Shown: one piece after another, positions 3,038-62,836 of the stretch
Numbering within the stretch: the stretch's first letter is position 1
Layout of the letters: the number at the start of each line of letters is the position of its first letter
NCBI GenBank assembly: GCA_002352465.1
Contig: DEIN01000012.1
Span: 17,484-81,483 of the forward strand
DNA: 64,000 nt
Direction of reading: 5' to 3'
Origin: Patescibacteria group bacterium UBA2773
GTDB lineage: Bacteria > Patescibacteriota > Minisyncoccia > Moranbacterales > DUUL01
Notes under the pieces: model-generated
The model's database searches: none
What the model was told of the DNA's origin: nothing
Seen by the model: only the letters and a program-made list of their open reading frames with translations
Position numbers and translations under genes: made by a program

Positions 3038-4489
3038 ATGTCTAAAAATGATGTGGCAGTTAAATTCAAAGAAGTTTCTTTTGAATACAGTTGGGATAAA
3101 GTCATTCTAAACGAAGCGTCTTTTTCTCTACGAAAAGGTTCTAAATTTACTTTAATGGGCCAGAATGGAGCTGGAAAAAGCACTTTGCTTAATATTATTA
3201 CTGGTTATTTGCAACCTAATGACGGAAAAATCTATCTTAATTCTGGCATGACCATTGCCTATGCTAAACAAGTTATTCCTCAAGACCAACTCGACTTAAC
3301 TTTACGAGAATTTTTCGAAAATTGTTTTTCTGAAAAATTTTATGACATTGATCGAAAAATTGAAGACATCTTAAAAATTGTTAATCTTAGAGCTGATTAC
3401 GATAAAAAAATCCGACTTTTTTCCGGTGGACAACAAGCTCGATTATTAATGGCCTCGGCGCTTATTCAAAATCCTGATCTTTTGATTCTCGATGAACCAA
3501 CCAACAATCTCGACCAAGAAGGGATTGACCACTTGACCGGTTTTTTAATGAACTATGAAAAAACTTGCATCGTCATTTCTCATGATGCTAACTTTTTAAA
3601 CTGCTTTACTGACGGAGTTCTTTATCTTGATATTTTTACTAAAAAAATTCATCAATATGTCGGAGATTACTACACAGTAGTAACTGAAATCGAAGAACAA
3701 ATAGAAAAAGATAAACGAAAAAATGCTCAATACGAAAAAGAGATTTTAGCCAACAAAGAAAAAGCCAATTTCTTTGCCAACAAAGGAGGTAAAATGCGAT
3801 TAGTAGCCAGAAAAATGCGATTAAAGGCCCAAGAAATGGAAGTTTCAAAAGTCAACGTTCGGCGAGAAGATCAAGCTATTCGAGACTTTGATATTCCAAT
3901 TCAAGAAGGCTTAAGCGGTGAAGTGATTAATATTTCCTCTTTGACCGTAATGAAAAATCACAAACCAACTGAAAAAAAAGTTCGAGTTTCTCTTAATAAA
4001 AATCGGCATTTATTACTCTCTGGTCCCAATGGCATCGGAAAAACTACTTTACTAGAATCACTGGCGAATGGAAAAGCCAAGGATGCTCAAATTTCCGAAG
4101 GAATTAAAATCGGCTATTATCGCCAAGATTTTTCCAATCTTGATTTTGAAAGCACCGTTTTTGACACTTTGCTCGAAGCGATGACCGAGAAAAAAGAAGA
4201 GCGTCTTCGAAGCGTGGCAGCTGGATTTTTGCTCACTCGAGAAATGGTTTATTCCAAAATTGTCGCTCTTTCTGAGGGTCAAAAAGGATTAGTAGCTTTT
4301 GCTCGTTTGATGTTAGAAGAACCTGGCTTGTTAATTCTTGATGAACCAACCAATCACATCAATTTCCGTCACCTGCCAGTTATTGCTAAAGCCCTAGACA
4401 ACTACAAAGGCGCTATGATTTTAGTTAGCCACACCCCCGAATTTGTAGAACAAATTCGAATTGACGAAACCCTCGACCTAGCCAATTAA
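3038..4489 (+). CDS. ABC-F family ATPase (two tandem ABC nucleotide-binding domains, no TM domain)
   Basis: Two Walker A motifs (GQNGAGKST; GPNGIGKTT), two ABC signatures (FSGGQQARL; LSEGQKGLV) and two Walker B motifs (LILDEPTN) separated by a charged linker. Confidence 0.8.
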   Translation: MSKNDVAVKFKEVSFEYSWDKVILNEASFSLRKGSKFTLMGQNGAGKSTLLNIITGYLQPNDGKIYLNSGMTIAYAKQVIPQDQLDLTLREFFENCFSEKFYDIDRKIEDILKIVNLRADYDKKIRLFSGGQQARLLMASALIQNPDLLILDEPTNNLDQEGIDHLTGFLMNYEKTCIVISHDANFLNCFTDGVLYLDIFTKKIHQYVGDYYTVVTEIEEQIEKDKRKNAQYEKEILANKEKANFFANKGGKMRLVARKMRLKAQEMEVSKVNVRREDQAIRDFDIPIQEGLSGEVINISSLTVMKNHKPTEKKVRVSLNKNRHLLLSGPNGIGKTTLLESLANGKAKDAQISEGIKIGYYRQDFSNLDFESTVFDTLLEAMTEKKEERLRSVAAGFLLTREMVYSKIVALSEGQKGLVAFARLMLEEPGLLILDEPTNHINFRHLPVIAKALDNYKGAMILVSHTPEFVEQIRIDETLDLAN

Positions 4490-5163: not shown

Positions 5164-6366
5164 TTAACCAACAAAAGTCAGGGCAATTCCAGCCTTATCG
5201 GCTCGTCCAGTTCGACCAATTCGATGAACATAATCATCATAAGTCGCTGGGATATCAAAATTAATCACATGACTTACATTTGGAATATCCAAACCTCGAG
5301 CCGCCACATCAGTCGCCACCAAAATATCAATTGAATTTCGTTTAAAATTTTGCAGTACTCTTTGTCTTTTGTTGTGAGGTTTGTTGCCATGAATAGCATC
5401 TGATTTTAAACCTTTTTGTTGTAATTTTTTCGAAAGCTTATCGGCCCCATGCTTAGTTCGAGAAAACACCAATACTTTTTCAAATTGAGTTTGAATAAGA
5501 AGTTTATAAAGAACTTCAATTTTATCTTCGTTCTTAATTCTGATAATATCCTGGTCAATTTGATTAGAAGTTTCTCTAGTTTTTAATGAAATCCGCTCTG
5601 GATTTTTCAAAAAATCTTTCACTAACTTTTCAATCTCTCGAGAAAAAGTAGCCGAGAATAACATTGTTTGTCGTTCTTTTTTTAACAAAGCCAAAAGTTG
5701 CTTGACATCATTGATAAATCCCATATCCAACATTCGATCGGCTTCATCTAAAACAACATTATTGAATTTTGATAAATCAAGAGTTTTCCGAGAAATTAAA
5801 TCCTTTAATCTTCCTGGCGTTCCAATTACCAAGTTATGACGTCTTCGTAATTCTCGAACTTGTCCGTGAATATTAGCTCCGCCGACAACCACCACTGAAT
5901 AAATCCCCATCTTTTGAGCCAAAGCTCTAAATTCTTCTTGAATTTGAATTGCCAATTCCCTAACTGGCACCACAATTAAAACCTTTTCTTGAGGATTATT
6001 CAAAATTTTATTCAACAGTGGAATTAAAAAAGCCGCTGTTTTTCCGGTTCCAGTATTAGCTAATCCAATTACATCTTTTCCAGCTAAAACAACTGGAATA
6101 GCTTTTTCTTGAATTGGAGTTGGGTCAACAAATCCCCGACTTTTAATTGCCTGTTTTAATTTATAATCAATTTCTAAATCGTCAAAAGAATACTGAGGTT
6201 TGAAAACTTCAGCGGGCTTTATTGGTTCAGCTTTATTAATGAAACGATTGACATTAATTGAATCACCCGAAAAACCTCGTTTTCCGCCAAAACGTGAACT
6301 GCCTCTAGCCTTTTTTTTCCAACCATTATTAGCACGTAGTTGTCGCGTTTTTCCATTATTATACAT
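5164..6366 (-). CDS. DEAD-box ATP-dependent RNA helicase with Arg/Gly-rich basic N-terminal extension
   Basis: Q-motif region, Walker A TGTGKTAAF, DEAD box VVLDEADRM, SAT and HRIGRTGRA motifs. Confidence 0.9.
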   Translation of the reverse strand: MYNNGKTRQLRANNGWKKKARGSSRFGGKRGFSGDSINVNRFINKAEPIKPAEVFKPQYSFDDLEIDYKLKQAIKSRGFVDPTPIQEKAIPVVLAGKDVIGLANTGTGKTAAFLIPLLNKILNNPQEKVLIVVPVRELAIQIQEEFRALAQKMGIYSVVVVGGANIHGQVRELRRRHNLVIGTPGRLKDLISRKTLDLSKFNNVVLDEADRMLDMGFINDVKQLLALLKKERQTMLFSATFSREIEKLVKDFLKNPERISLKTRETSNQIDQDIIRIKNEDKIEVLYKLLIQTQFEKVLVFSRTKHGADKLSKKLQQKGLKSDAIHGNKPHNKRQRVLQNFKRNSIDILVATDVAARGLDIPNVSHVINFDIPATYDDYVHRIGRTGRADKAGIALTFVG

Positions 6367-6584
6367 TGTGTATCTAACATAAAAATTAAATTCTTTTTAT
6401 GTTTAGATACTCAATTACACAATCAGAAGTATTAACATAAAAAATAATAATACAATTTTATTTAAGTTTTGTCAAGAGAAGTTCTCTTCTTTTTGCTTTT
6501 TAAAGGCAAATTTTAAAAAATAATCAAGCACCCAAAGACTCAAAAACCTTAGCTAATTTTTAAATCTTTATCAACAAAACAAAA

Positions 6585-6800
6585 TTAAATTTCAATTTTA
6601 AATTTAGTAAATTTTTTAATTTTTCCCGCTACCACCAAAGCCCCAATTCCTCCAATAATTAACAACATTCCTACTAAAATTCCCAGCAAATCAGGATAAA
6701 TAACAATTAAAATTCCGGTCAAAATTGACAAAAATCCTTCCAGTAAAATCATCCAAAAAATATTTTGCATAAACTTAAACACAAATTCAACTTTGCTCAT
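6585..6800 (-). CDS. Small two-TM membrane protein (hypothetical)
   Basis: 71 aa with two hydrophobic helices and GxxxG-like repeats; no recognisable family. Confidence 0.3.
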   Translation of the reverse strand: MSKVEFVFKFMQNIFWMILLEGFLSILTGILIVIYPDLLGILVGMLLIIGGIGALVVAGKIKKFTKFKIEI

Positions 6801-6939
6801 TTTTTTAATTAATTTTTATATTTAACCTTTATTTTTATTTTACACTCTTTACCTATTATCTCCAAATAAAAAACTTTTTTATTTTCCAAAAAATGTTATA
6901 GTTTGAATAAATCTTTAGATTATTTTTAAAAACAAAAAA

Positions 6940-7140
6940 ATGGAAGAATTAATTCAAAAATTAGAACAGCAAGAACAACAACTCAACGAAATTCACGCCA
7001 CCGTCAAAAAATTAAAAAAATATTTTCTAACCACTATTATTATTTCTATTCTAACCTTTTTATTACCTTTGATTGGAGTAGTCGTCTCTTTACCTTGGAT
7101 CATCAAAACCCTCACCGCTTCTATGCAGAGTTTGTTATAA
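6940..7140 (+). CDS. Small protein with coiled-coil N-terminus and C-terminal TM helix (hypothetical)
   Basis: 66 aa; charged helical N-terminus and one TM segment; a possible terminator hairpin follows at about 7159-7200. Confidence 0.3.
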   Translation: MEELIQKLEQQEQQLNEIHATVKKLKKYFLTTIIISILTFLLPLIGVVVSLPWIIKTLTASMQSLL

Positions 7141-7267
7141 GAAATTTCAACCAAGCAAAAAGATCGGAAATTTTTATTAAAATCACCGGTCTTTTTAATT
7201 TAAAGAATCCTAGTATTTTTTATTAAAACCTGCTATAATAGATTAACTTAATTATTAACTAAAAATT

Positions 7268-18775: not shown

Positions 18776-19108
18776 TTTTATTTTACCTAAATTATTGAGT
18801 TTTTTGTTTTAAACAAAGACTTTTAAGCAATTTTAATTTATTTTCTAATTTTATTTTTTTGATTTACTAATCTCAAATAATTCAACCCAAACAAGGTTTT
18901 ATAAGAAAAATCGTATTTCCATTAATCGTTAAATTTATTTTAACACATAAAAAAACAGTTGCAAAGTCAAGTTATGAACAATCAAGTCAAGAGCTTTTTA
19001 ATTTAAGTTTTTTAGCTTAAAATCTAGACATAATCAAATCTTCAAAATATACTTTTAAAAAGCAGAATTCTAATTCAAAAATACCTCAGTATAAAAACTT
19101 TAAAAACA

Positions 19109-19140
19109 AAAAAGACTTTCTCGTGAAAGAAAGTCTTTTT
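19109..19140 (-). terminator. Intrinsic terminator downstream of hup
   Basis: AAAAAGACTTTCT-cgtgaa-AGAAAGTCTTTTT perfect 13-bp stem; on the minus strand it is followed by a T-run. Confidence 0.6.
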
Positions 19141-19167
19141 AAGATTTATTAAAAATAATTTAAAAAA

Positions 19168-19443
19168 TTATTTTTTTACAGCTTCTTTTAAAGTTTTTCC
19201 AGCTTTAAATTTAGGTACTGTAGTGGCAGCGATTTGGATTTTTTCCTTAGTTAAAGGATTTACTCCAGCCCGAGCAGCTCGATCAGATGTTGAAAATGTT
19301 CCAAAACCTGTAAAAGCTACGGTTCCCCGTGATTGCAAAGTTTCAGTAACTACATCCAAGACTGCGTTGATGGCGCTATCAGTATCCTTTTTACTAAGTC
19401 CTGTTTTAGAAGCAACTGCATCTATTACGTCTTTCTTGTTCAT
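19168..19443 (-). CDS. hup: HU-family nucleoid-associated DNA-binding protein
   Basis: 91 aa; MNKKDVIDAVA...GFGTF...R.ARAGVNPLT..KI.I...VPKFKAGK signature of HU/IHF. Confidence 0.85.
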   Translation of the reverse strand: MNKKDVIDAVASKTGLSKKDTDSAINAVLDVVTETLQSRGTVAFTGFGTFSTSDRAARAGVNPLTKEKIQIAATTVPKFKAGKTLKEAVKK

Positions 19444-19679
19444 GTTGTCACCTCCCTGCTATTTTTCATTTATTTATTTTAATTTTTAGCCAAAGTTGTT
19501 TCTCTCTAAGTAATTTGCTTTTCAGAAATGTTCTTTTAATTCTTCAATAACTGCTTATTTAACAGTGCTATCATTCTAATACACTTTATACAAACAATGC
19601 AAGCTTTTATCCTTATTTTAAAGCTTTTATTTATTTTTAAAGCTTTTCTTGACTTTTTATAAACATTTGTTCTTTGGCT

Positions 19680-50770: not shown

Positions 50771-51946
50771 CTAATCTTTTTTATATACTTTTACTTTAGA
50801 AGCCTTGATTGTTCGGATGATATTATCCGGATTAGGGCTAATAGCAAAGCTCTCTAGTCGACTGGCGCCTTCATTTTGAAAGTAAAGTCGTGGGTTTAAA
50901 AAACGGATTTGAGCTAAATCGGTTTTTTTGATGCCGACAGATGCTCCGAAGCCGCCTCCGACAAAAAGACTGTCTTTCCCCCAGGATTTTCCGGTTTCTA
51001 AATTTAGTTCTGGTGTCACTCGCACTCCAGAAACATTTAGATCATAAAGACCAGTTTTTCCTCGAACACTCAAGGTGCTCTCATCATATTCCTCGGCTCC
51101 TCCCGAAGTTTTAGCACTCAGCTGATGTTGATATTCAGCTGAAATGTTTTGAATTGGAAGAACTTTTTCGCCTCGAGCTCGTCGTTGTTCATTTTCATAG
51201 TTGGCTCGAGCGTGAAGACTCAAGGTTTTTTGACCCTTGGGACTTCCTCCTTGACTAGTGGTCTGTTTAGAAACTCCCAGGCCGAGTCCTGTTGTTTGGT
51301 CATTCTTGAATTTTTCAGTAGCTAAGCCTCCTTCAAAGCGATGATATTTATAAGTCGCTTGATAACCGGGTTTTTTCATTCTTCCTTTTCCGGCATTGCC
51401 ACGGAGTTCTAGGCCAATTTTCCAATCTTGAACTTTCCAGGGGAAAACAGAAACCATCCCATTCCAGTTGTAGCCTTTCCATTTAGTTTTGTCTTTTTTT
51501 CCAGCATTTAAGTCTCTGTCTTGAGAATAACCCAAATTGCCGCTCCAATCTTTTATCCCTTTTTTAAAATCAGTTTTAATAAAAGATCGGTTAGTCTTTT
51601 TAGGTGAGTCCCTTGTTTTTCTTTGCTCGGTTGGCGAAGTTGAAACTGCTACTATCAAAGGAGCAGTTTTTGCCGAAACTTTACTAGTAATTTGCGTCGG
51701 AAGATATAAAGTATCTCCGACTGAAATCCTAGTTTTATTCGTTACTTTTTGCATCTTTCCTTTTTCTAGTTTGTACCACTTTAGGCAATTCCTCCAATTG
51801 CCAGTGGTTCTGTAAGCTAAATTTAAAGCATAGCCAGATTTCTTAACCTGAAAAGGCTCATAACCATTTGGAATCGAAATTTGTCTAGCTTCAACATTAG
51901 AAAAAAACAATAAGACAAAACTTGTTACTATTAGTAATTTTTTCAT
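50771..51946 (-). CDS. Secreted Gly/Lys-rich beta-rich protein (hypothetical)
   Basis: N-terminal signal peptide; alternating-polarity stretches suggest beta structure; no family recognised. Confidence 0.35.
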   Translation of the reverse strand: MKKLLIVTSFVLLFFSNVEARQISIPNGYEPFQVKKSGYALNLAYRTTGNWRNCLKWYKLEKGKMQKVTNKTRISVGDTLYLPTQITSKVSAKTAPLIVAVSTSPTEQRKTRDSPKKTNRSFIKTDFKKGIKDWSGNLGYSQDRDLNAGKKDKTKWKGYNWNGMVSVFPWKVQDWKIGLELRGNAGKGRMKKPGYQATYKYHRFEGGLATEKFKNDQTTGLGLGVSKQTTSQGGSPKGQKTLSLHARANYENEQRRARGEKVLPIQNISAEYQHQLSAKTSGGAEEYDESTLSVRGKTGLYDLNVSGVRVTPELNLETGKSWGKDSLFVGGGFGASVGIKKTDLAQIRFLNPRLYFQNEGASRLESFAISPNPDNIIRTIKASKVKVYKKD

Positions 51947-51955
51947 AACTACCCC

Positions 51956-52918
51956 CTATTTTTTTTGATTAAATTGTTCAACTAAAAATTCAAATTGAGC
52001 TGAGAGCTCTTTTCGAGTGATGGTTGAATTGGCGGAGTTGGCTTTATAAACTGGGTCAGCTGTTAGTTCTTGAATCCCGTGATTTAAAATAGTTGAAATT
52101 CCAGCAAACACCAAAACTTCAACGCTAGTGGCAACTGGAATATATAATCTTTCCATAATACGTTGCCACCCATTTAGGTGTGGATTAGTTCTAACTAATT
52201 CTTGAATACGTTCTTTACTAGCAGAGCTTCCAACAATTTTGCCACTAGCTAGCGTGAAGCTATTTCCTAGGCTGGCCTGGAAATCTTTTTCAAAAAGATC
52301 CCATTCTGGAGAATCAATTTTAATCTCGCCAAGCGAAATTTTTTCAATCAATCCTAGTTTTAACCAAGCCTGAAAAATTTCCTCTAAATTCATTCCGAAT
52401 TCTTGAAAAACTGCTGTTCGGTAATCCAAGTCTTTTTCTAGTCGTTGGGAATCGTAGCCTTCTTTTTGTGGATAAGACCTTCCCATTGGAGAAAAAAGCC
52501 AGATCATTCCATCTCGATTAGCCAGAAGAAAGCGGTGATATTTAAGGTCTTCTAATTTTCCTAAAGAAACTGTCTCTAGCAGAGGAAGTCCCCAAGGAGT
52601 TTTTTCATAAGAGCCTTTCTTAAAATAGGCAAAGTCCTCCTGAATTTTTCTTGTTGGGTCTCGCTGGTCAACTGAGATTACTTTCCAAGTGCCATTAAAA
52701 CCTATCCCGACGCATTCTACTAAGAGTTTGGGCGGGAAGATTAAAGGAAAAATAACTATAGTGTTTCCATCTTTTCGGATTTGATCTGGATGAGGAGCAG
52801 AAACGCTATTCTCCAGTTCTGTAATCCCAAACTTGGGTACTTTAGTCGCACAGCCTGTTAAAACAAATAAACTTAGAAAGGTTATTAAAACCAATCGAAA
52901 AAAAGTTTTTGGGTTCAT
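51956..52918 (-). CDS. Lipoprotein (hypothetical)
   Basis: Signal peptide with lipobox LTGC. Confidence 0.5.
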   Translation of the reverse strand: MNPKTFFRLVLITFLSLFVLTGCATKVPKFGITELENSVSAPHPDQIRKDGNTIVIFPLIFPPKLLVECVGIGFNGTWKVISVDQRDPTRKIQEDFAYFKKGSYEKTPWGLPLLETVSLGKLEDLKYHRFLLANRDGMIWLFSPMGRSYPQKEGYDSQRLEKDLDYRTAVFQEFGMNLEEIFQAWLKLGLIEKISLGEIKIDSPEWDLFEKDFQASLGNSFTLASGKIVGSSASKERIQELVRTNPHLNGWQRIMERLYIPVATSVEVLVFAGISTILNHGIQELTADPVYKANSANSTITRKELSAQFEFLVEQFNQKK

Positions 52919-54705: not shown

Positions 54706-55200
54706 CTATTTTGATTTAAATTTAAAATTGATTATAAAAAAGAAAAAACCCAGACTAATAAAAGTGTCAGCTAGGTTAAAAATGGGAAAATTCCAAATTG
54801 AAATATAATCAATAACGCAACCAATTAGTAATCGATCAATCAGGTTAGATAAAGTTCCGGCCAAAACTAACAATAAAAAAAAGTTTTTAAATCTATAGAT
54901 TAAGAAAAACAAAATTATCAAAGAGCATAACCAACCAAACCAAAAAAGAATAGGATTAATAGTTAAGCTCAAAGATAGATTGGGATTGCAGATGGTATTT
55001 AAAAAAATTTTCCAATTAGGCAGATTTTTTTGAGAAGCTAGATATTTAAAAAATTGATCTAAGGCAATAAGTAGACCAATTAAAACAATACTAAAACTTG
55101 TTTTATTGGCATTCCACGCAGTTTTGAGCAGCTGGATAAATTTCCAAACGCTTGATGGGAATATCTTTTTTACATTTTTCACATTTTCCGTAGGAACCAT
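54706..55200 (-). CDS. lspA: Lipoprotein signal peptidase II
   Basis: NLIDR...GCVIDY and FNLAD motifs and 4 TM helices; the annotated ATG start overlaps the upstream DksA-like ORF by about 98 bp (a GTG at about 55182 would still overlap by about 80 bp), so the true start is uncertain. Confidence 0.75.
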
Positions 55201-55444
55201 TTTCTATTTTTTTAAGAGCTAAGACTATTTTTTCTAATTCCGTTTCTAGTGATTCGGTGATGCCAAGGCTGGCGGTGTAGTTTTCAACTTCACTGGCATT
55301 GTCCTCTCGTTCTCGGCCATAATCTTCAAATTCTGTTTTGTAATCACCTTCAGCGTCTTGGCTGGCGATTTTTCTTAGTTCCATTTCAATCCGATTTTTT
55401 TCTTCGATTAATTTTTCTTTGAAAAAGTCTAAATTTTTTAACAT
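55103..55444 (-). CDS. DksA/TraR-family C4 zinc-finger protein
   Basis: Coiled-coil N-terminus and C-terminal CEKC...(17 aa)...CVEC zinc finger. Confidence 0.65.
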
Positions 55445-55763
55445 TTTGTGAATTTTATTTTTTTAAATAATCTTTTTAATAATAAAATTTTAACACATTT
55501 AAACAGAGCAGGTCAATTCATCTTGTTTACAAAATCTAAGTTTTGGTTTAAAATAGAGTTATTAAAATTATTTAAAAACTTTGATGAGGTTATCACCTCG
55601 GAGTTGCGAAAAGAAAGCTTGAATTTCAAGTGATTAGAATTTGTCGGATTGATCCGTAAAAATCAATAATGAAGAACTGTTTATTTGAACAGTCAAAATG
55701 AGGTGGTACCACGGCAAGCGTCGTCCTTAATGAAATTATTTTAAGTAATTTCCATTAGATCGC

Positions 55764-58733
55764 TTGTTTTTTTATTTGCTTAATAAAATGATTATGTTTA
55801 AAAAAGTTAGTCCTCAACAAAATTATGCCGAGATGGAAAAAGGAATTTTGAATTTTTGGAAAAAGAAAAAAGTTTTTCAAAAATCAATTACTAGTCGGCC
55901 AGCTGATAAAATCTATAGTTTTTATGATGGGCCTCCTTTTATTACTGGAGTGCCTCATTATGGAACGTTGCTTTCGTCAATTGTAAAAGATTGTATTCCT
56001 CGTTTTTGGACAATGAAAGGCTATCGAGTGGATCGAAGGTGGGGTTGGGATTGTCATGGATTGCCAGCCGAGAATATGGTGGAAAAAAAATTAGGAATTA
56101 AAAGTAAAAAAGAAATTGAAGATGTGGTAGGAATTGATAAATTTAATCAGGCTTGTTTTACAGAAACTTCCAAGATTGCTGATGAATGGGAAAATGTAAT
56201 TGACCGAATTGGTCGTTGGGTGGAGTTTAAGGGTGCTTATAAAACCATGGATAATAGTTATATGGAATCTGTTTGGTGGGCTTTTAGTCAACTTTATAAA
56301 AAAGATTTGATTTATGAAGATGTTCGAGTTTCTTTGTATTGTCCTCGTTGTTCTACTCCGTTGAGCAATTTTGAGATTGCGATGGATAATAGTTACCAAG
56401 AAGACAAGGATCCCTCAGTTTATGTTAAATTAAAATTAGAGGGAACGGAAAATAAATATTTACTAGCTTGGACGACTACTCCTTGGACTTTGCTTGGAAA
56501 TGTGGCTTTAGCAGTTAATAAAACTGTCGATTATGTTGAAGTTCAAGTTAAAAAGCAAAATCAAGAAAATATTAAAAGTAAACCAGCAATTTTTTTCGCG
56601 GTGGAGGAAATTTATATTGTCGCTAAAGACCTTTTGAAATCATTAGATGCGGAATATGAAGTTTTAAAAACTTTTAAAGGAAGCGAATTGGTCAGTAAAA
56701 AATATCAACCGTTGTTTAAAAGTGAGATTGAAAATGGTTATCGCATTATTGAGGCGGATTTTGTGGGGACTGAAGATGGAACGGGAATAGTTCACATTGC
56801 TCCAGCTTTTGGGGAAGACGACTTTAATGTTCGTAAAGTAAATGAATTACCAATAATTATCAATGTTGACGAAGAGGGCAAATTTAAGGACGGAGAATGG
56901 AAAGGTGAGCAAGTTTGGGATGCTAATTTAAAGGTGATTGGTTGGCTCAAGGAGCATGATTTACTTTATCGCAAAGAAAACATTATCCATAGTTATCCGC
57001 ATTGTCATCGCTGTGGCACTAAATTGATTTATAAAGCGCAACCAGCTTGGTTTGTGAATATTGATAAAATTCGTCAAGAATTAATTGCAAAAAATCAAAA
57101 TGTTAATTGGTATCCAGAGTATTTAAAAGAAGGTCGGTTTGGAAAGGGATTAGAAAGTGCTCCAGATTGGAATATATCTAGGGATCGTTATTGGGGAACG
57201 GCGATGCCGATTTGGAAATGCGAAGACAAAGAATGCGGAGAAGTTCAAGTGGTTGGATCTTATGAAGAATTGGAGACACTTTCGGGAAAGCAATTGGATA
57301 ATTATCATCGGCCAGAAATTGATAAAGTGAGTTTTTCTTGTTCAAAATGTGGTAAAAAAATGCAAAGAATTCCTCAGGTATTCGATTGTTGGGTGGAATC
57401 AGGCTCAATGTCTTTTGCTCAATTTCATTATCCTTTTGAAAATAAGGAAAAATTTGAAAAAAGTTTTCCAACTAATTTTATTTCAGAATATATCGGTCAA
57501 ACTAGAGCTTGGTTTTATGTGATGCACGTGATGGCGGTTGGAGTTTTCGGTTCAGAGGCTTATCAAAATGTTTTAACTTCGGGGGTAATTGCTGGAGAAG
57601 ACGGACGAAAAATGTCGAAATCTTTGGGTAATTACACTGATCCGGGAATAATCTTGGAAAAATATTCGGCTGATGCTTTGAGATTTTATTTATTATCTTC
57701 ACCTTTATTAAACGCTCAAAACCTAAATTTTTCCGAGGAAGCAGTGGGCGATATTCAAAGACGGTTTTTAGGAACACTTTGGAATAGTTATTCATTTTTT
57801 GTCTTGTATGCCAATGTTGACAAATGGCAGTCCAAAAAAATTAATTTAGAGGAAATTTTGCTTAAAGGTAATGTTTTGGATAAATGGCTATTGTCTGAAT
57901 TGAATCAATTAATCAAAGAGGTCAATCAAGGTTTTGATAATTATTCGATTATCAAACCGGCTAAAAAAATTGAAAAATTTGTGGATAATTTATCTAATTG
58001 GTATATTCGAAGATCTAGAAGACGTTTTTGGAAAAGTGAGGGAGATGACGATAAAAATATGGCCTATCAAACTTTGTGGTTGGTTTTAACTGAATTTTCA
58101 AAAGTGATTGCGCCTTATTGCCCTTTTGTGGCTGATGAAATTTTTAAGAATTTAACTGGTAAGGAATCAGTTCATTTAGAAAGTTTTCCAGAAAGCAATG
58201 AGAAGTTAATAGATCTTAAAATTAGCCAAGAAATGGCGAGAGTTCGAAAGATGATTGAACTGGGATTGTCATTGAGGGCTGAAAATGGAATTAAAGTTCG
58301 ACAGCCATTAAGCGAATTGATTATTGAAGGTGAAAAATTAAGAGCTGAATTAGAAAAACTTTTAGTAGAAGAAGTCAATGTTAAAAATCTTTCTTATGAT
58401 AATCTTTCCGAAACTGAGTTGGTTTGGAAGGAAGTCGAGGGAATTAAAATCGGCTTAAACTTGGTTCTTAACAAAGAGCTTGAAGCAGAGGGTGATATGC
58501 GAGATTTAATTCGACAACTGCAACAAGCCCGAAAAGAAGCTGATTTTAAGATTGATGATCGGATTAGTTTAAGTTATCAAAAACATTCGTTGTTTAATCA
58601 GTTTTCTTTAATTATTAAAAATGAGGTTTTAATTGAAAAATTTCAAGAAGTTTCTGAAAAACCAGATGGATTTGATTACGAAAAAGAAGTTAAAATTAAT
58701 GGAGAAAAAATTAAAGTTTGGCTCAAAAATTAG
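55764..58733 (+). CDS. ileS: Isoleucyl-tRNA synthetase (type-2, eukaryote-like form)
   Basis: Class I motifs PPFITGVPHYGT (HxGH region, type-2-like 'HYG') and KMSKSLGN; editing domain and C-terminal Cys cluster; 989 aa; the ORF begins with TTG and the true start is probably the ATG at about 55794 (MFKKVSP...). Confidence 0.85.
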   Translation: MFFYLLNKMIMFKKVSPQQNYAEMEKGILNFWKKKKVFQKSITSRPADKIYSFYDGPPFITGVPHYGTLLSSIVKDCIPRFWTMKGYRVDRRWGWDCHGLPAENMVEKKLGIKSKKEIEDVVGIDKFNQACFTETSKIADEWENVIDRIGRWVEFKGAYKTMDNSYMESVWWAFSQLYKKDLIYEDVRVSLYCPRCSTPLSNFEIAMDNSYQEDKDPSVYVKLKLEGTENKYLLAWTTTPWTLLGNVALAVNKTVDYVEVQVKKQNQENIKSKPAIFFAVEEIYIVAKDLLKSLDAEYEVLKTFKGSELVSKKYQPLFKSEIENGYRIIEADFVGTEDGTGIVHIAPAFGEDDFNVRKVNELPIIINVDEEGKFKDGEWKGEQVWDANLKVIGWLKEHDLLYRKENIIHSYPHCHRCGTKLIYKAQPAWFVNIDKIRQELIAKNQNVNWYPEYLKEGRFGKGLESAPDWNISRDRYWGTAMPIWKCEDKECGEVQVVGSYEELETLSGKQLDNYHRPEIDKVSFSCSKCGKKMQRIPQVFDCWVESGSMSFAQFHYPFENKEKFEKSFPTNFISEYIGQTRAWFYVMHVMAVGVFGSEAYQNVLTSGVIAGEDGRKMSKSLGNYTDPGIILEKYSADALRFYLLSSPLLNAQNLNFSEEAVGDIQRRFLGTLWNSYSFFVLYANVDKWQSKKINLEEILLKGNVLDKWLLSELNQLIKEVNQGFDNYSIIKPAKKIEKFVDNLSNWYIRRSRRRFWKSEGDDDKNMAYQTLWLVLTEFSKVIAPYCPFVADEIFKNLTGKESVHLESFPESNEKLIDLKISQEMARVRKMIELGLSLRAENGIKVRQPLSELIIEGEKLRAELEKLLVEEVNVKNLSYDNLSETELVWKEVEGIKIGLNLVLNKELEAEGDMRDLIRQLQQARKEADFKIDDRISLSYQKHSLFNQFSLIIKNEVLIEKFQEVSEKPDGFDYEKEVKINGEKIKVWLKN

Positions 58734-58762
58734 ATAAAAAATTAATTAATTTTTAAAAAAAT

Positions 58763-58791
58763 AAAGTGTCGCAGAGGCGCTTTGTTTTTTT
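58763..58791 (+). terminator. Intrinsic terminator of ileS
   Basis: AAAGUGUC-gcaga-GGCGCUUU (8-bp stem, two G-U pairs) followed by GTTTTTTT. Confidence 0.5.
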
Positions 58792-58867
58792 GCAGAATAA
58801 GCTTTTTACGAATTAGATTATTTAGAAAGAGCTTTATTTGAGTAGGTTTTTTAATAATAAAAAAATA

Positions 58868-58893
58868 CCCCGTCTGGGGGTTTTGATTTTTTT
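58868..58893 (+). terminator. Second terminator-like hairpin, CCCC-gtct-GGGG followed by a T-run
   Basis: Seen directly; short GC stem followed by TTTTGATTTTTTT. Confidence 0.4.
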
Positions 58894-59080
58894 CCGGTGT
58901 TGGTTATTGGATTGATAACCGGGGCGCTGGAAGCCCTTGTTTTATTAGTGGCTCAGCGCCACCGGAGTACCGACTTCAACTCATTTTATTATAATTAAAG
59001 CCGATGATTTATGCTTCGTTGAGCATATTTTTTTCTTCTACCGTCTTATGGATTTATTTTTTAAATCCTTTTTTGTTGTT
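58894..59080 (+). ncRNA. Candidate small structured RNA: GC-rich three-helix element (58894-58965) followed by its own terminator hairpin GGATTTA-ttttt-TAAATCC and T-run (59050-59080)
   Basis: Local GC-rich island in an AT-rich genome; nested inverted repeats CCGGTG/CACCGG, GGTTAT/ATAACC, GGCGCTG/CAGCGCC; bounded by terminators on both sides; no ORF. Confidence 0.35.
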
Positions 59081-59118
59081 GTTTTTGTGATTCTTTCTTC
59101 TTTTGTTTTTGTTTTGGT

Positions 59119-59244
59119 TTGGGATTGCTTTCAAATATTCTTTTTATAACAGTGAAAAAATATTTAAAAGCAATCCCAGGTTAGACAGCTAGAAGGTTTC
59201 AATCGTGAATAGGGGGACATCACGATTGAAACTTTCTAGCTGTC
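59119..59244. repeat. Two adjacent long hairpins: imperfect, about 27 bp (59119-59179), and near-perfect 25 bp (59184-59244, loop ATAGGGGGACA)
   Basis: GGGATTGCTTT...AAAGCAATCCC with inner AAATATT/AATATTT; GACAGCTAGAAGGTTTCAATCGTGA pairs with TCACGATTGAAACTTTCTAGCTGTC (one G-U). Confidence 0.6.
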
Positions 59245-59374
59245 AATTAAGACAGTAAAAATTTTGTTTTAAAAAGAACTAAACTTTTGTAATTTCTTGA
59301 TTACAATACTATTATAGCATTTTTTTAGCTGTTGGTCAATCAGAGAGTCTATCGGCTAAGCAGAGGTAAAAAAC

Positions 59375-60511
59375 TTAATTTATAGGAGTATTTTCGACAT
59401 TTTTTTCGGAATTATCAGACAAGTTAGCGTTGATTCTTAAGTCTTTCGTAATTTTTAAAGCAGTTTCTTTGGATGTTGTTAGTATTAAATAGTTGTTATC
59501 TGTAATTCCCCAATCAATAGCTTTGCTAAAATCTGCTTCTACAAAATTGTAATATCTAATGTTTTTCAAGTCTTTGCTTTTTGCGAAGATAATTAGTTCA
59601 TCTTTTAAAATAAAAGATTCATCTATAAATAAAGGTTTTAAAAGTTCAGGTAAACGAGATTCGTTTTTGTTAAAAAAAGTTTTAATGAGTTCTTGATTTT
59701 CTGTGGTTTTTAAAACTAAACTCATCTTCAGGGTATCTTCTAAAGGATAAATAAAAACCCAAGCCTGGTTAAGTTCATTAGAAATTTCTTTAGGTAATTG
59801 AATTTCTAATAAATTTAATAATTCGGAAGAATTTAAAATAGTATCGGCTTGTTTAATCTGATAGTAAGTTCCTAAACTGTTTGAGATTAATGCTTTTTTT
59901 CCTAGTAATAAAGTTACTAAACTAGTTTCTTTCGGGTTAAAAGAAAGAGTTTCGCTGTTTTTCAATTTTTCTGGAATTTTTTCCATAGAAGTAGTTGGTT
60001 CTGGCGTAATTAGTGATGGTCCTTCTACAGTGGGTTTTTTTATGAAATAAAGATAGTAAATACTAGCTCCGATTGCAATTAAGGAAACCAATAGCAGTAC
60101 TAATAAGAGCTTACTATCAATTGAAGTTGTTTTTTTAGGGGATTTTTTTGGATTTGAAATATCGGGAACTATTGGTGTGATTGATTTATTTTTGAAAGAT
60201 GAGACATTCAGTGGTTTATTTTCTTTTTCTTTTGGAGTACCAGTAAAAACGTTAGTTGGGGTTGGTTTCCCGATATTTTCTAGAAAAGGATTGGAAGATT
60301 CTTTTCCTCGAATCACTTTTTTGGGTTCTTTTGTTTTTTTTATTATTTTTGTTTCATCGATTTTTGGTTTAGGAGTTGTTTTTTGAGAAAAATCAAAAGA
60401 AGAATTTTTTGGTTTTTCATTTTTAAGATCAGTCTCCATCGTTTGCATAACGTAATCGATTTTTTTAGGAGAATTTTCAGAAAGGGTTGTCTTTTTGTTT
60501 TCAGTTGGCAT
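59375..60511 (-). CDS. Single-pass membrane protein with Lys/Thr/Pro-rich N-terminal region (hypothetical)
   Basis: 378 aa; central TM helix LLLVLLLVSLIAIGASIYYLYF. Confidence 0.4.
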   Translation of the reverse strand: MPTENKKTTLSENSPKKIDYVMQTMETDLKNEKPKNSSFDFSQKTTPKPKIDETKIIKKTKEPKKVIRGKESSNPFLENIGKPTPTNVFTGTPKEKENKPLNVSSFKNKSITPIVPDISNPKKSPKKTTSIDSKLLLVLLLVSLIAIGASIYYLYFIKKPTVEGPSLITPEPTTSMEKIPEKLKNSETLSFNPKETSLVTLLLGKKALISNSLGTYYQIKQADTILNSSELLNLLEIQLPKEISNELNQAWVFIYPLEDTLKMSLVLKTTENQELIKTFFNKNESRLPELLKPLFIDESFILKDELIIFAKSKDLKNIRYYNFVEADFSKAIDWGITDNNYLILTTSKETALKITKDLRINANLSDNSEKNVENTPIN

Positions 60512-60772
60512 TTTTATGAGGAATTTTCAAGTCTTTTAAAGAATAAAATGAGAAGTCAAAAGACTGCAAAATAGTTCCTGATTATTTTTTATATTTAGGA
60601 ATTGCTTCTAATTGTTCTTTCTACTGCTTGTCTCGCTAAGGTTTGTTGATGCAGGTAAAATTATAACTAGGAACAATTTCCCTTTAAAATTGCATTAAAA
60701 TTATTAATAACAATTTTATTTAAAATAATTATAACATAAATTTGTCAGAAAAAAAGTTTATTTTTTTTGAGT

Positions 60773-62836
60773 CTATTCTCTAATTAAACTTACTCGGCCT
60801 TGTTTGTCGATTTCTTTAACTTTAACTTTAATTACATCGTCTATTTTTAGATATTTGTTGATGTCTGTTACCCGTTCTTTAGCGATTTGAGAAATATGAA
60901 GAAGACCGTCTTGTCCTGGCAATAGTGAAATAAAAGCTCCAAAATCTAAAATTTTAATTACTTTTCCTTCGAAAACCTCACCAGCTTGAATTTCTCGAGT
61001 TAAATCCTCAATCCATTTCCGAGCTTCTTCTCCAGAATTTTGATCAACAGCGGTAATGAAAATATTCCCATCGTCTTCAATGTCAATTTCTGCTCCAGTT
61101 TCTTCAATAATTTTATTGATAATTTTTCCGCCAGCTCCAATCACGTCTCGGATTTTATCTGGATTAATTTTAATAGTAATAATAGCTGGAGCAAAAGAAG
61201 AAAGTTTTTTATTAGGCTTGGCAATAACTTTTTCCATCTCAGCTAAAATGTCTAAACGGTTCTTTTTTGATTGAACCAAAACTTCTTTGGTAATAGCCAA
61301 GTTTATTCCATTAATTTTAACATCTAATTGAATCGCATTAATTCCATCTTTAGTTCCAGCAATTTTGAAATCCATATCGCCCCAATGATCTTCGGGTCCT
61401 TGGATATCGGAAAGAATTTTATAAATAGAGTCATCTTTTGTTACGATTCCGATTGCTAATCCAGCTACTGGTTTTTTAAGAGGAACACCCGCATTCATCA
61501 AGGCTAAGGTTGAACCACAAGTAGAAGCCATCGAAGAAGATCCATTGGAAGATAAGACTTCACTGACTACTCGAATAGTGTAGGGAAAAGTTTCTCTAGA
61601 AGGAAGCATTGGAAGGATAGCTTTTTCAGCTAAAGCACCATGACCAATTTCTCTTCGACCTGGTCCTCGTAAAAATCGAACTTCACCGACACTGTAAGGA
61701 GGAAAGTTGTAATGATGCATATAATATTTTTTGCTCTCTCTTTCCATTGTGTCAATGAGTTGTGCGGCTCCAGGAGCAGCCAAAGTAGCAATACTCAAAG
61801 CTTGAGTTTCTCCTCGATTGAATAATCCAGAACCGTGAGTTCGAGGAAGCAATCCAACTTGGCAACTAATTTTTCGAACTTCATCTAAAGCTCTGCCATC
61901 TGGTCGTTGGTTATCTTCTAGGACTTTATCGTGAAAAACATCGTTTAAATATTCGTCTAAAATAAAATTAATTTCGGCTTTTTTTGTTTTTAATTCTTCA
62001 ACGTTTTCAAATTTTTCTTGAGCGTGCTGATTCAAAATTTCTTTAATTTCTGACATTTTTTTCTTGCCAGCTTCTTTATTAGAAGTATACAAAGCTTTAA
62101 AGGCTTCATTTTTATTTAATAAAGCCACTATTTCTTGGGTAAATTCAGGCGTAGCGGTAGTAATAGCGACTGCTTGTTTTTCTTTGCCGACTTTTTCTAT
62201 GATTTCTTTTTCAAAACGAGCTATTTCTTGAATTTGTTTTTGAGCCATTTCAAAAATAGTTTGAGCATCGTTTTCGGAACATTCGTTAGCATCAGCTTCA
62301 ATCATATTGATTTTATCTTCGGTTCCAGCTACTAAAAAATTAACTGAATTTTCGGGATTATTAGGATTTTCAGTTATTTTTACCGCGGCTACTGGACCAT
62401 CCCAGGGAATATCAGAAATTCCCAAAGCCAAAGAAGCAGCGATTACGGCTAGATTAGCTGGATTATGGGTTTCGTCGTAGGAAAGAACAGTCGTTATTAC
62501 TTGAACTTCATTTCGCATCGTTTGATTAAAAAGTGGTCGAATAGTTCGATCGATTAAACGAGAAGTTAAAATTGCGTCGTCGGATGGTCGAGCTTCTCTT
62601 TTGATAAAGCGAGAACCATTAATTTTTCCACTGGCATAAAATTTTTCTTCATATTCCACCATTAAAGGGAAATAATCAATTCCCACTGCTTTATTACTGC
62701 TCAGGGTAGCATTAGCCATTATTACTGTGTCACCACATTGAACTGTTACGCTTCCACTTGCTTGTTGAGCAAAAGTTCCAGTTTCAACGATTAAATCTTG
62801 ACCGTTGATTTTTTTTACAAATCTTTGTTCTTGCAT
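60773..62836 (-). CDS. pnp: Polynucleotide phosphorylase
   Basis: Two RNase PH domains, KH (IGAGGKIINKI) and C-terminal S1 domain; 687 aa. Confidence 0.95.
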   Translation of the reverse strand: MQEQRFVKKINGQDLIVETGTFAQQASGSVTVQCGDTVIMANATLSSNKAVGIDYFPLMVEYEEKFYASGKINGSRFIKREARPSDDAILTSRLIDRTIRPLFNQTMRNEVQVITTVLSYDETHNPANLAVIAASLALGISDIPWDGPVAAVKITENPNNPENSVNFLVAGTEDKINMIEADANECSENDAQTIFEMAQKQIQEIARFEKEIIEKVGKEKQAVAITTATPEFTQEIVALLNKNEAFKALYTSNKEAGKKKMSEIKEILNQHAQEKFENVEELKTKKAEINFILDEYLNDVFHDKVLEDNQRPDGRALDEVRKISCQVGLLPRTHGSGLFNRGETQALSIATLAAPGAAQLIDTMERESKKYYMHHYNFPPYSVGEVRFLRGPGRREIGHGALAEKAILPMLPSRETFPYTIRVVSEVLSSNGSSSMASTCGSTLALMNAGVPLKKPVAGLAIGIVTKDDSIYKILSDIQGPEDHWGDMDFKIAGTKDGINAIQLDVKINGINLAITKEVLVQSKKNRLDILAEMEKVIAKPNKKLSSFAPAIITIKINPDKIRDVIGAGGKIINKIIEETGAEIDIEDDGNIFITAVDQNSGEEARKWIEDLTREIQAGEVFEGKVIKILDFGAFISLLPGQDGLLHISQIAKERVTDINKYLKIDDVIKVKVKEIDKQGRVSLIRE

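Follow-up and report, generated by a model that had tools for sequence, protein, structure and literature searches.

A probable gene for a large structured RNA on the strand opposite ileS in Moranbacteria

We studied the region downstream of ileS in a 64,000-nucleotide stretch of contig DEIN01000012.1 from Patescibacteria group bacterium UBA2773 (this whole stretch is called the window below). The gap between ileS and the next gene, which encodes a 378-aa protein that we call C0, very probably consists of one gene for a previously undescribed structured non-coding RNA (ncRNA) of ~445 nt, carried by the minus strand, opposite ileS. The existence of the gene, its strand and the predicted fold of its product are proposed here as a joint claim, in which we have high confidence. 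A first-pass annotation of the window had already suggested an unannotated RNA gene in this gap, and the promoter, the terminator, the conservation and the covariation described below bear this out. It had, however, drawn the transcript on the plus strand, with a length of ~190 nt between two terminators; the RNA that we predict runs instead along the minus strand, from 59304 to 58859. The closest relatives of the ileS and pnp genes of the window are all named Candidatus Moraniibacteriota (Moranbacteria), a phylum of the candidate phyla radiation (CPR), the source of the window being a low-GC member.

The gap measures 641 bp and its longest open reading frame (ORF) encodes 33 aa, two ORFs of this size being present on the plus strand. 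It had been singled out as an unusually long non-coding region. Its non-coding character was confirmed. Gaps of comparable length between ORFs of at least 100 aa exist elsewhere in the window, and the two that were checked (6367-7267 and 18776-19679) hold ORFs of 66-91 aa and gave no Rfam match at the gathering threshold. When folding energies were compared with those of shuffled sequences, the gap gave a z-score of -7.4 on the plus strand, and the minus-strand RNA a z-score of -13.7. For the GC-rich segment at 58894-58965, the values were -3.1 (plus) and -4.5 (minus), and none of 200 shuffles folded equally well.

A promoter of the form TTGACC-N17-TGCTATAAT was found at 59339-59311 on the minus strand. 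It is close to the sigma-70 consensus and points from C0 towards ileS. Neither this promoter nor the two inverted repeats of 24-25 bp at 59120-59178 and 59184-59244 figured in the first-pass annotation. In the 29 loci scanned by regular expression, the -35 element TTGAC(C/T/G) was detected every time, while the -10 element was TGCTATAAT in 27 and TGTTATAAT in the other 2. Before the loci reached through pnp were added, all 20 instances carried TTGAC(C/T/G)-N17-TGCTATAAT on the strand opposite ileS. Promoters of such quality are scarce in the window, as only one other was found in the 64 kb, at 55487-55516 on the minus strand. This second promoter, of the type TTGACN-N17/18-TGnTAnAAT, lies upstream of a dksA/traR-type zinc-finger gene (55103-55444) and of lspA (54706-55200).

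At the opposite end of the predicted transcript, a GC-rich hairpin is followed by a run of seven U. A terminator scanner called three sites in all, against 0.6 expected. The U-run, which reads A7 on the plus strand, is invariant in seven syntenic loci, whereas the T-run on the plus-strand side of the same hairpin is not. Hairpin and U-run are present in every homologue with a complete 3' end. Taken together, a near-consensus sigma-70 promoter, an RNA start near 59304 and termination at the hairpin with its U7 run are supported by these data. Three plus-strand terminators in series had been annotated in the gap, and they fared differently. The first is retained and is attributed below to ileS. 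The second is called by the scanner on both strands, with a U-run kept on the minus strand only; it would be the terminator of the minus-strand RNA itself. The third, at 59050-59068, was not called by the scanner: it has an AT-rich 7-bp stem with two G-C pairs, corresponds to an internal hairpin of the RNA (PE) and is followed by a T-run that is the complement of a conserved A-rich tract.

To look for homologues, species-representative genomes were scanned with IleS. Of the 80 loci obtained, six (L001, L007, L010, L013, L014, and L020; IleS 52-78% identical to that of the window) have DNA downstream of ileS that aligns with almost the entire gap. Among the invariant blocks in this alignment were the promoter hexamers, the apex and loop of a 25-bp hairpin, the plus-strand A7 beside the hairpin at 58867-58881, portions of the GC-rich element and a tract rich in A. 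An exact-pattern scan of metagenome contigs with the apex of the 25-bp hairpin (PC) added 13 further loci, and the RNA was present in all 12 Moranbacteria loci reached through homologues of polynucleotide phosphorylase (PNPase, encoded by pnp) of 56-84% identity. Profile matches spanned the full length of the RNA in all related loci. The set used below contains 25 distinct sequences of 392-558 nt, with numerous insertions and deletions across the gap region. Their identity to the RNA of the window is 48-84%, with core motifs that are almost invariant, while C0 proteins of different clades share only 25-47% identity. By this comparison, the RNA appears to form a family conserved across uncultured Moranbacteria. 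The window holds a single copy. No copy was found in the viral contigs scanned, nor in the other ileS loci by profile or covariance-model search; when a covariance model of the 3' element (R1) was applied, every one of the 25 RNA loci gave a match and the 16 other ileS loci gave none. Some, at least, of the genomes that these RNA-free ileS loci come from probably have the RNA beside pnp and C0 instead. Carriers of the RNA include complete genomes with contigs of 1.1-1.3 Mb (JAXHLG010000002, Ga0675942_0000013 and JBSHXF010000001), and lake and groundwater metagenomes (Ga0180430, Ga0307992, Ga0187647 and Ga0376525) are among the sources of these genomes.

Two of the loci, L101 (9700-10170) and L102 (9800-10350), carry a divergent subfamily whose overall architecture is unchanged. 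Their promoter has the TGTTATAAT element, their PC loop is not C-rich, a GUUCUUU box sits beside PE, and helix P8 is wholly different in sequence, with AAACACC/GGUGUUU in place of UCCGGUG/CACCGGA.

Conservation of base pairing was then evaluated in the homologues. RNAalifold, run on a plain MAFFT alignment, found compensatory changes in 16 of 40 predicted pairs. For helices PB and PC together, 87.5% of the cells held standard pairs against 34-49% in slid controls, and 14 pairs were changed on both sides, a number that none of 500 shuffles reached; the count for PB is lowered by three sequences that are misaligned there. Considered alone, PC showed 93.7% of cells paired and 9 of its 25 pairs changed on both sides. 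PB was also regained in most homologues by an unconstrained duplex search spanning 315 nt. In the 3' element, 94.9% of cells were paired (34-48% in slid controls) and 10 of 18 pairs were changed on both sides. When the homologues were folded singly, PE was recovered in almost all of them, and two further hairpins, PF and PG, in most, with stems that differ between sequences. These helices show compensatory changes in related genomes.

Several of these observations also bear on the strand. The promoter lies on the minus strand, the U-run is kept on that strand only, and P9 is more stable there in two clades. Read as minus-strand RNA, PB has standard pairs in 122 of 135 cells, G·U accounting for 25, whereas the plus-strand reading gives 97 of 135. 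We therefore assign the RNA to the minus strand. The positions of all features are given in Table 1.

Table 1. Predicted RNA gene, its structural elements and the flanking genes. Positions are those of the window; helix coordinates are taken from the minimum-free-energy fold in RNA (minus-strand) orientation.
Feature	Position	Strand	Remarks
ileS	55764-58733	+	left edge of gap
Plausible ileS terminator, AAAGUGUC-GCAGA-GGCGCUUU then G and U7	58763-58791	+	plus-strand fold; outside RNA gene
Predicted ncRNA transcript, ~445 nt	58859-59304	-	5' end inferred from position of -10; 3' end is the U7 run
RNA terminator, ACCCC-CAGAC-GGGGU then A and U7	58859-58881	-	GC hairpin; called by scanner on both strands
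3' three-way element, GC-rich	58893-58966	-	P8, P9 and P10
P8	58961-58966 with 58893-58898	-	conserved; three pair types at outermost position (position 1)
P10 (GGTTAT/ATAACC hairpin)	58902-58920	-	variable; missing from several clades
P9	58923-58960	-	conserved; 3-4 kcal/mol more stable on minus strand in L010 and L013 clades
PG helix AUCGGCUUUAAUU/AGUUGAAGUCGGU	58969-59005	-	predicted in most homologues folded singly
PF hairpin UAUGCU/AGCAUA	59010-59027	-	covarying stems in most homologues folded singly
PB 3' strand UAAGACGGUAGAAG	59035-59048	-	partner of 59248-59261
PE hairpin GGAUUUA/UAAAUCC	59050-59068	-	counterpart in almost all homologues
Unpaired A/C-rich linker, two conserved (A5Y)n blocks, AAAAYAAAAAYAAAA and AAAAYAAAAA	59069-59119	-	invariant or near-invariant columns, 25 sequences
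PD, 24-bp hairpin at variable site	59120-59178	-	inverted repeat I2; sequence specific to lineage of window
PC, 25-bp hairpin with 11-nt loop UGUCCCCCUAU at 59209-59219	59184-59244	-	inverted repeat I1
PB 5' strand UUUUUACUGUCUUA	59248-59261	-	pairs with 59035-59048; several both-side changes
Conserved box AGUUCUUU	59273-59280	-	invariant columns G32, T34, C35, T37 and T38 in alignment A2
P1, 5'-terminal hairpin GUAAU/AUUAC	59289-59304	-	variable; missing from some homologues
Extended -10 element TGCTATAAT	59311-59319	-	invariant columns in alignment A1
-35 hexamer TTGACC	59334-59339	-	scanner match 11/12 with TG extension
C0, 378-aa protein	59375-60511	-	right edge of gap
pnp	60773-62836	-	beyond C0

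The minimum-free-energy fold of the RNA of the window alone recovered every helix derived by comparison. A model with two domains is supported, in which the 14-bp long-range helix PB closes a junction of the 5' domain that would hold PC, PD, the linker and PE. The loop of PC reads U(U/G)UCCCCCUAU in 23 of 25 distinct sequences, the exceptions being L101 and L102, and the apical stem of PC is near-invariant, yet compensatory changes occur there in L098 and G·U pairs are found in this part of the stem. PD behaves differently. It is missing from the close relatives L020 and L082, and in other clades unrelated hairpins, differing completely in sequence and length, occupy the site. PD is a nearly perfect palindrome, in which two minus-strand G·U pairs are C·A mismatches on the plus strand; it looks as if a permissive site had recently received an insertion or undergone expansion. 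PE is built of various stems elsewhere (GGGUUUA/UAAACCC, GGGA/UCCC, GGGAU/AUCCC, and GGGC/GCCC). For the conserved box upstream of PB, no consistent pairing partner was found among the homologues; in L101 and L102 it sits beside PE. A helix between the GUUCUUU box and AGAAGAA was considered and dropped for a continuous PB helix with the proximal U-rich strand.

PF and PG lead on from the 5' domain to the 3' domain. The PG stems also vary, with CGACGAG/UUCGUCG in L010, L099 and L100, CAGCCUU/AAGGCUG in L097 and CGAUCU/AGAUCG in L104, while PG of deeper clades contains a long insert with UCACCC loops. The 3' domain corresponds, read on the other strand, to the three-helix GC-rich element of the first-pass annotation. 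That element is genuine, as it covaries in the 25 homologues, and the nested repeats described within it (CCGGTG/CACCGG, GGTTAT/ATAACC and GGCGCTG/CAGCGCC) were all found at their positions in 58894-58965. The 5' strand of P8, CC(G/A)G at 58961-58966, can pair either with the distal CAC(C/U)GG (58893-58898) or with C(C/U)GG right after P9 (58919-58922), and in the L013 clade it co-varies with both candidate partners. Sequence conservation is seen in CCGGUWAYCMAU, the segment on the 3' side of P9. We also considered whether the PC loop kisses UAGGG in P9 or PF, a contact that proved not to be conserved.

The PB strands resemble those at the base of PC: the 5' strand of PB (59248-59261) is similar to the 3' strand of the PC base (59184-59195) and the 3' strand of PB (59035-59048) to its 5' strand (59233-59244), and in L091 the sequence UUCUGCUGUUCC is present twice. 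An alternative with a local hairpin ACUGUC..GACAG and a different long-range helix could form, which hints at a folding intermediate or a switch.

A number of points weigh against our interpretation. Transcription, both ends and abundance of the RNA are all inferred from sequence. The likeness of the PB and lower PC strands permits the alternative pairing just described, and the CCGG of the P8 5' strand has two possible partners. As for the alignments, the one of the 3' element (A5) was fitted to the structure of the model itself and is therefore biased towards that structure, and alignment A3 was built from excised mini-constructs. PC and P8 are nearly strand-symmetric and do not discriminate between strands, so that the strand call is left to the promoter, the terminator, PB and P9. 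Finally, the homologues are without exception from one phylum, belong to metagenome-assembled genomes or contigs and represent a handful of clades; counts of covarying cells consequently exceed the true number of independent events.

Could the RNA be a highly divergent version of a housekeeping RNA, namely 6S RNA, RNase P RNA, transfer-messenger RNA (tmRNA) or signal recognition particle (SRP) RNA, missed by Rfam in an AT-rich lineage? Housekeeping RNAs typically have a consensus promoter, such a size and strong conservation, and 6S RNA is poorly conserved in sequence. We searched the whole window against Rfam 15 at the gathering threshold, the locus at E-values up to 10 with the laxest filters, and the divergent homologues L013 and L001 at E-values up to 5. 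The first search returned three transfer RNAs (tRNAs) only. At the relaxed thresholds, the locus matched no family and, like the two homologues, gave only chance-level matches of microRNA or small nucleolar RNA models on hairpins; no housekeeping family appeared in either search. The models of 6S RNA (RF00013) and of RNase P RNA (RF00010, RF00011) gave no match at E up to 10 in the window or up to 5 in L013 and L001. For 6S RNA, the two structures also differ, since 6S RNA is a ~180-nt rod with a large central bubble, whereas the RNA described here is predicted to be a multi-domain junction fold of 392-558 nt, more than twice as long; what they have in common is a consensus sigma-70 promoter, a single copy, lineage-wide conservation and probable abundance. 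ARAGORN detected no tmRNA in the window, only the three tRNAs, and the tmRNA model RF00023 had no Rfam match. The SRP RNA models (RF00169, RF01854) gave no Rfam match at E up to 10, and the loop and stem of P9 lack the domain IV motif (GNAR loop, with conserved symmetric and asymmetric loops). By eye and with Rfam, we found no P4 helix or conserved-region motifs, no tRNA-like domain, no tag frame and no SRP domain IV. We regard a divergent housekeeping RNA as improbable, in agreement with the first-pass annotation, which had recognized no SRP, 6S, tmRNA or RNase P signature.

For RNase P RNA, candidate motifs were followed individually. The P4 signature (GGAAAGUCC with ACAGAA..GGCUUA) is approached in the window by GAAGUCGG and CGGCUU, which are the two strands of PG in reversed order and which become CGACGA/UCGUCG in L010, and so are not conserved. 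AGGGUGC..GGUAAC, also picked by eye, was rejected on the same grounds, the order being wrong, the sequences not conserved and the room insufficient for the remaining RNA.

Next, the genes around the RNA were compared between loci. Immediately upstream of the RNA, each of the 32 loci has a C0 homologue in the same orientation, even where pnp or ileS has moved away. In L098, other genes separate pnp from C0 and two C0 paralogues precede the RNA, and ileS is missing or replaced in L081, L091, L096, L098, L101, L102 and L104. Downstream, the next gene is convergent in most loci, the window included, and is ileS, a radical SAM gene or a PMT_2 gene. L091 and L104 have no intervening ileS: there, zf-dksA/traR and lspA genes of the same strand come immediately after the RNA and its terminator. 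This arrangement would suit a cis-acting element, which could serve the dksA-like and lspA genes as a long 5' leader or attenuator, or could be a 3' untranslated region or insulator between convergent genes, and no obvious terminator was seen in the window between C0 and the RNA promoter. The RNA is nevertheless equally conserved in the loci where the next gene is convergent, the dksA-like operon of the window has its own promoter at 55516, and the RNA keeps a consensus promoter and a strong terminator of its own in every context. A cis-acting role thus has little chance of being correct.

A plus-strand small RNA of ~190 nt between the second and third terminators, with the GC-rich element as its core, is very improbable. 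On the plus strand, the GC-rich element does fold well (z-score of -3.1) and hairpins with T-runs exist at 58867-58881 and 59050-59068. However, no plus-strand promoter is conserved, the conserved promoter and U-run both being on the minus strand, and the 25 G·U pairs of PB turn into mismatches when read on the plus strand. Conservation and covarying helices extend ~350 nt past the ends proposed for such an RNA, PB linking 59248-59261 with 59035-59048, and its third terminator is an internal hairpin that covaries.

Similarly, we give very little weight to an element acting as DNA, in which the palindromes would serve as a protein-binding, recombination or replication site or represent inserted palindromic repeats. 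What speaks for it is the pair of inverted repeats I2 (59120-59178) and I1 (59184-59244), each of 24-25 bp and with identical 11-nt spacers, together with the lineage-specific, nearly perfect PD, which looks like a recent insertion. This explanation is disfavoured because pairing is maintained through G·U, which a DNA palindrome would not tolerate. In addition, covariation is seen in PB and in the three-way junction, the element is flanked by a promoter and a terminator, and one copy of it occurs in the window and none in the viral contigs. One or more small-protein genes, such as the plus-strand ORF at 59048-59149, which encodes a hydrophobic 33-aa product, or a 5-codon ORF in PF, can practically be discarded: apart from the 33-aa ORFs of the plus strand and AUG-CUC-AAC-GAA-GCA-UAA within PF in the clade of the window, there is little to suggest them, the ORFs are not kept in other clades and have no apparent ribosome-binding site, and many indels are not multiples of three while base pairing is kept.

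Having compared these explanations, we return to the minus-strand structured RNA and to what it may do. It could be a stable, abundant RNA acting in trans, as suggested by the consensus promoter, the terminator, the presence of one copy per locus and a conservation well above that of the neighbouring protein. Our best guess is an abundant trans-acting regulator or a scaffold for a ribonucleoprotein (RNP). Its fold would display conserved single strands for binding, and the conserved unpaired elements would be the likely working parts. Among these, the C-rich loops, which read UCCCCCU and, in deeper clades, UCACCC, may bind G-rich RNA, for instance rare G-rich ribosome-binding sites, and the (A5Y)n tract may be a site for S1/30S, PNPase, a chaperone or another factor that binds single-stranded RNA. 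Tentatively, we prefer to see in it a regulator or a decoy that affects either translation initiation or RNA turnover. Upstream regions of 44 ORFs of the window are A-rich and mostly devoid of a Shine-Dalgarno sequence, and the C-rich loops resemble the anti-Shine-Dalgarno sequence. A 9-nt complementarity exists between the PC loop and AAUAGGGGGUAG, the ribosome-binding site of the ORF at 50771-51946. Upstream of the same ORF, AAUAGGGGGUAGUUAUG (51947-51965, minus strand) is among the few G-rich ribosome-binding sites of the window. In L010, an 11-nt perfect complement of the PC loop, AUAGGGGGAAA, is found at 3913-3925 on the plus strand, ~90 nt upstream of ileS. Such complementary sites are possible targets or chance matches. 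Less favourable to this reading, the candidate sites are few and not conserved, and the close relative L007 lacks the 11-nt complement of L010, little sequence having been searched per genome; the divergent L101 and L102 have no C-rich PC loop, and UCACCC loops are missing in the clade of the window itself.

The start regions of pnp in L094-L105 (positions 5800-6003) contain a AAAACAAAAA tract just before the AUG, resembling the (A5Y)n linker of the RNA. The same pnp leaders carry a long conserved hairpin, ..CUUAUGGUCUGCG... A less probable proposal than regulation or decoy is that of a new, Moranbacteria-specific class of large RNA, which would either form an RNP with C0 or mimic, by its (A5Y)n tract, the A-rich start regions of Shine-Dalgarno-poor translation. 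A membrane-tethered RNP with C0, analogous and evolutionarily unrelated to that of OLE RNA and OapA, is at best a weak candidate when taken by itself. The RNA may also have another function or a catalytic one.

C0 itself is a membrane protein that evolves fast and spans the membrane once. Its conserved parts are an N-terminal peptide, IDYxxQTMxxDLKN (residues ~17-30), and a C-terminal domain of ~200 aa; it also has a charged, K/E/P-rich, low-complexity linker of ~100-700 aa. It had no Pfam match, and a word search retrieved only 8 close homologues. The C-terminal domain gave a confident AlphaFold2 (AF2) model with no significant fold match and no RNA-binding match in the PDB. A guide RNA of the TnpB/IscB type was considered and rejected, the upstream 378-aa protein being a single-pass membrane protein without a Pfam match.

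Among known large RNAs, the models of OLE, ROOL, GOLLD, HEARO and raiA had no match in the searches described above, and a full-text literature search for structured RNAs of CPR bacteria, Moranbacteria or Parcubacteria gave nothing relevant. OLE RNA of Firmicutes offers a parallel for a possible partnership with C0. Both RNAs are large and intricately folded, with highly conserved unpaired nucleotides. The OLE RNA gene consistently adjoins a membrane-protein gene, an adjacency that led to the discovery of a membrane RNP with OapA (PMC11332333, PMC12265935); at the gene level, the comparable fact here is the position of the RNA gene directly after C0 in all loci. The two systems differ in several respects. 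OLE RNA has ~600 nt, against ~390-560 nt here, where the Rfam OLE model has no match, and it belongs to Firmicutes and not to CPR/Patescibacteria. OapA has four transmembrane helices (PMC11332333), whereas C0 is single-pass, its N-terminal linker being long and charged and its C-terminal domain unrelated.

Two other groups of RNAs share features with the family. The C-rich loops of RNAIII from S. aureus and of RsaE/RoxS pair with G-rich ribosome-binding sites. As in these RNAs, an apical loop with a C-run is the best conserved unpaired element here, several domains are closed by long-range helices, and the gene has its own promoter and intrinsic terminator. Unlike them, our RNA has no Rfam match, no encoded peptide and only few, non-conserved candidate sites, and the stem below its loop is near-invariant, which is unusual for a simple seed. 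Sponge RNAs such as CrcZ and CsrB/RsmZ carry repeated short single-stranded motifs between hairpins, as (A5Y)n is here, and CrcZ titrates Hfq/Crc through A-rich motifs. The CrcZ model did match the (A5Y)n tract, at chance level (12.9 bits against a gathering score of 95). In contrast with the sponges, there are two motif blocks only, in an ornate fold and not in a string of similar hairpins.

The RNA described here would add a new family to the large structured ncRNAs of bacteria that are restricted to particular lineages. To our knowledge, structured bacterial RNAs longer than ~300 nt are rare. The best-understood large ones are mostly ribozymes or essential RNP cores (ribosomal RNA, RNase P RNA, tmRNA, group I and II introns), and the remaining orphans, OLE, ROOL, GOLLD and raiA, are actively studied for their rarity. 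As far as we know, CPR members have tiny genomes, are mostly uncultured, and almost no ncRNAs have been described in them. That a reduced genome keeps an RNA of ~450 nt under a consensus promoter, better conserved than the adjacent protein, suggests an important function, and its constant pairing with one membrane-protein gene provides a concrete candidate partner. The sequences and the model permit a search for the family in all CPR genomes and its submission to Rfam.

Outside the RNA gene, the plus-strand hairpin nearest to ileS (58763-58783) has an 8-bp stem followed by U7 (T7 in the DNA) and is plausibly the terminator of ileS; an equivalent hairpin with a T-run is also found downstream of ileS in L020. 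On the other side of the locus, pnp and C0 are separated by a gap of 260 bp at 60512-60772.

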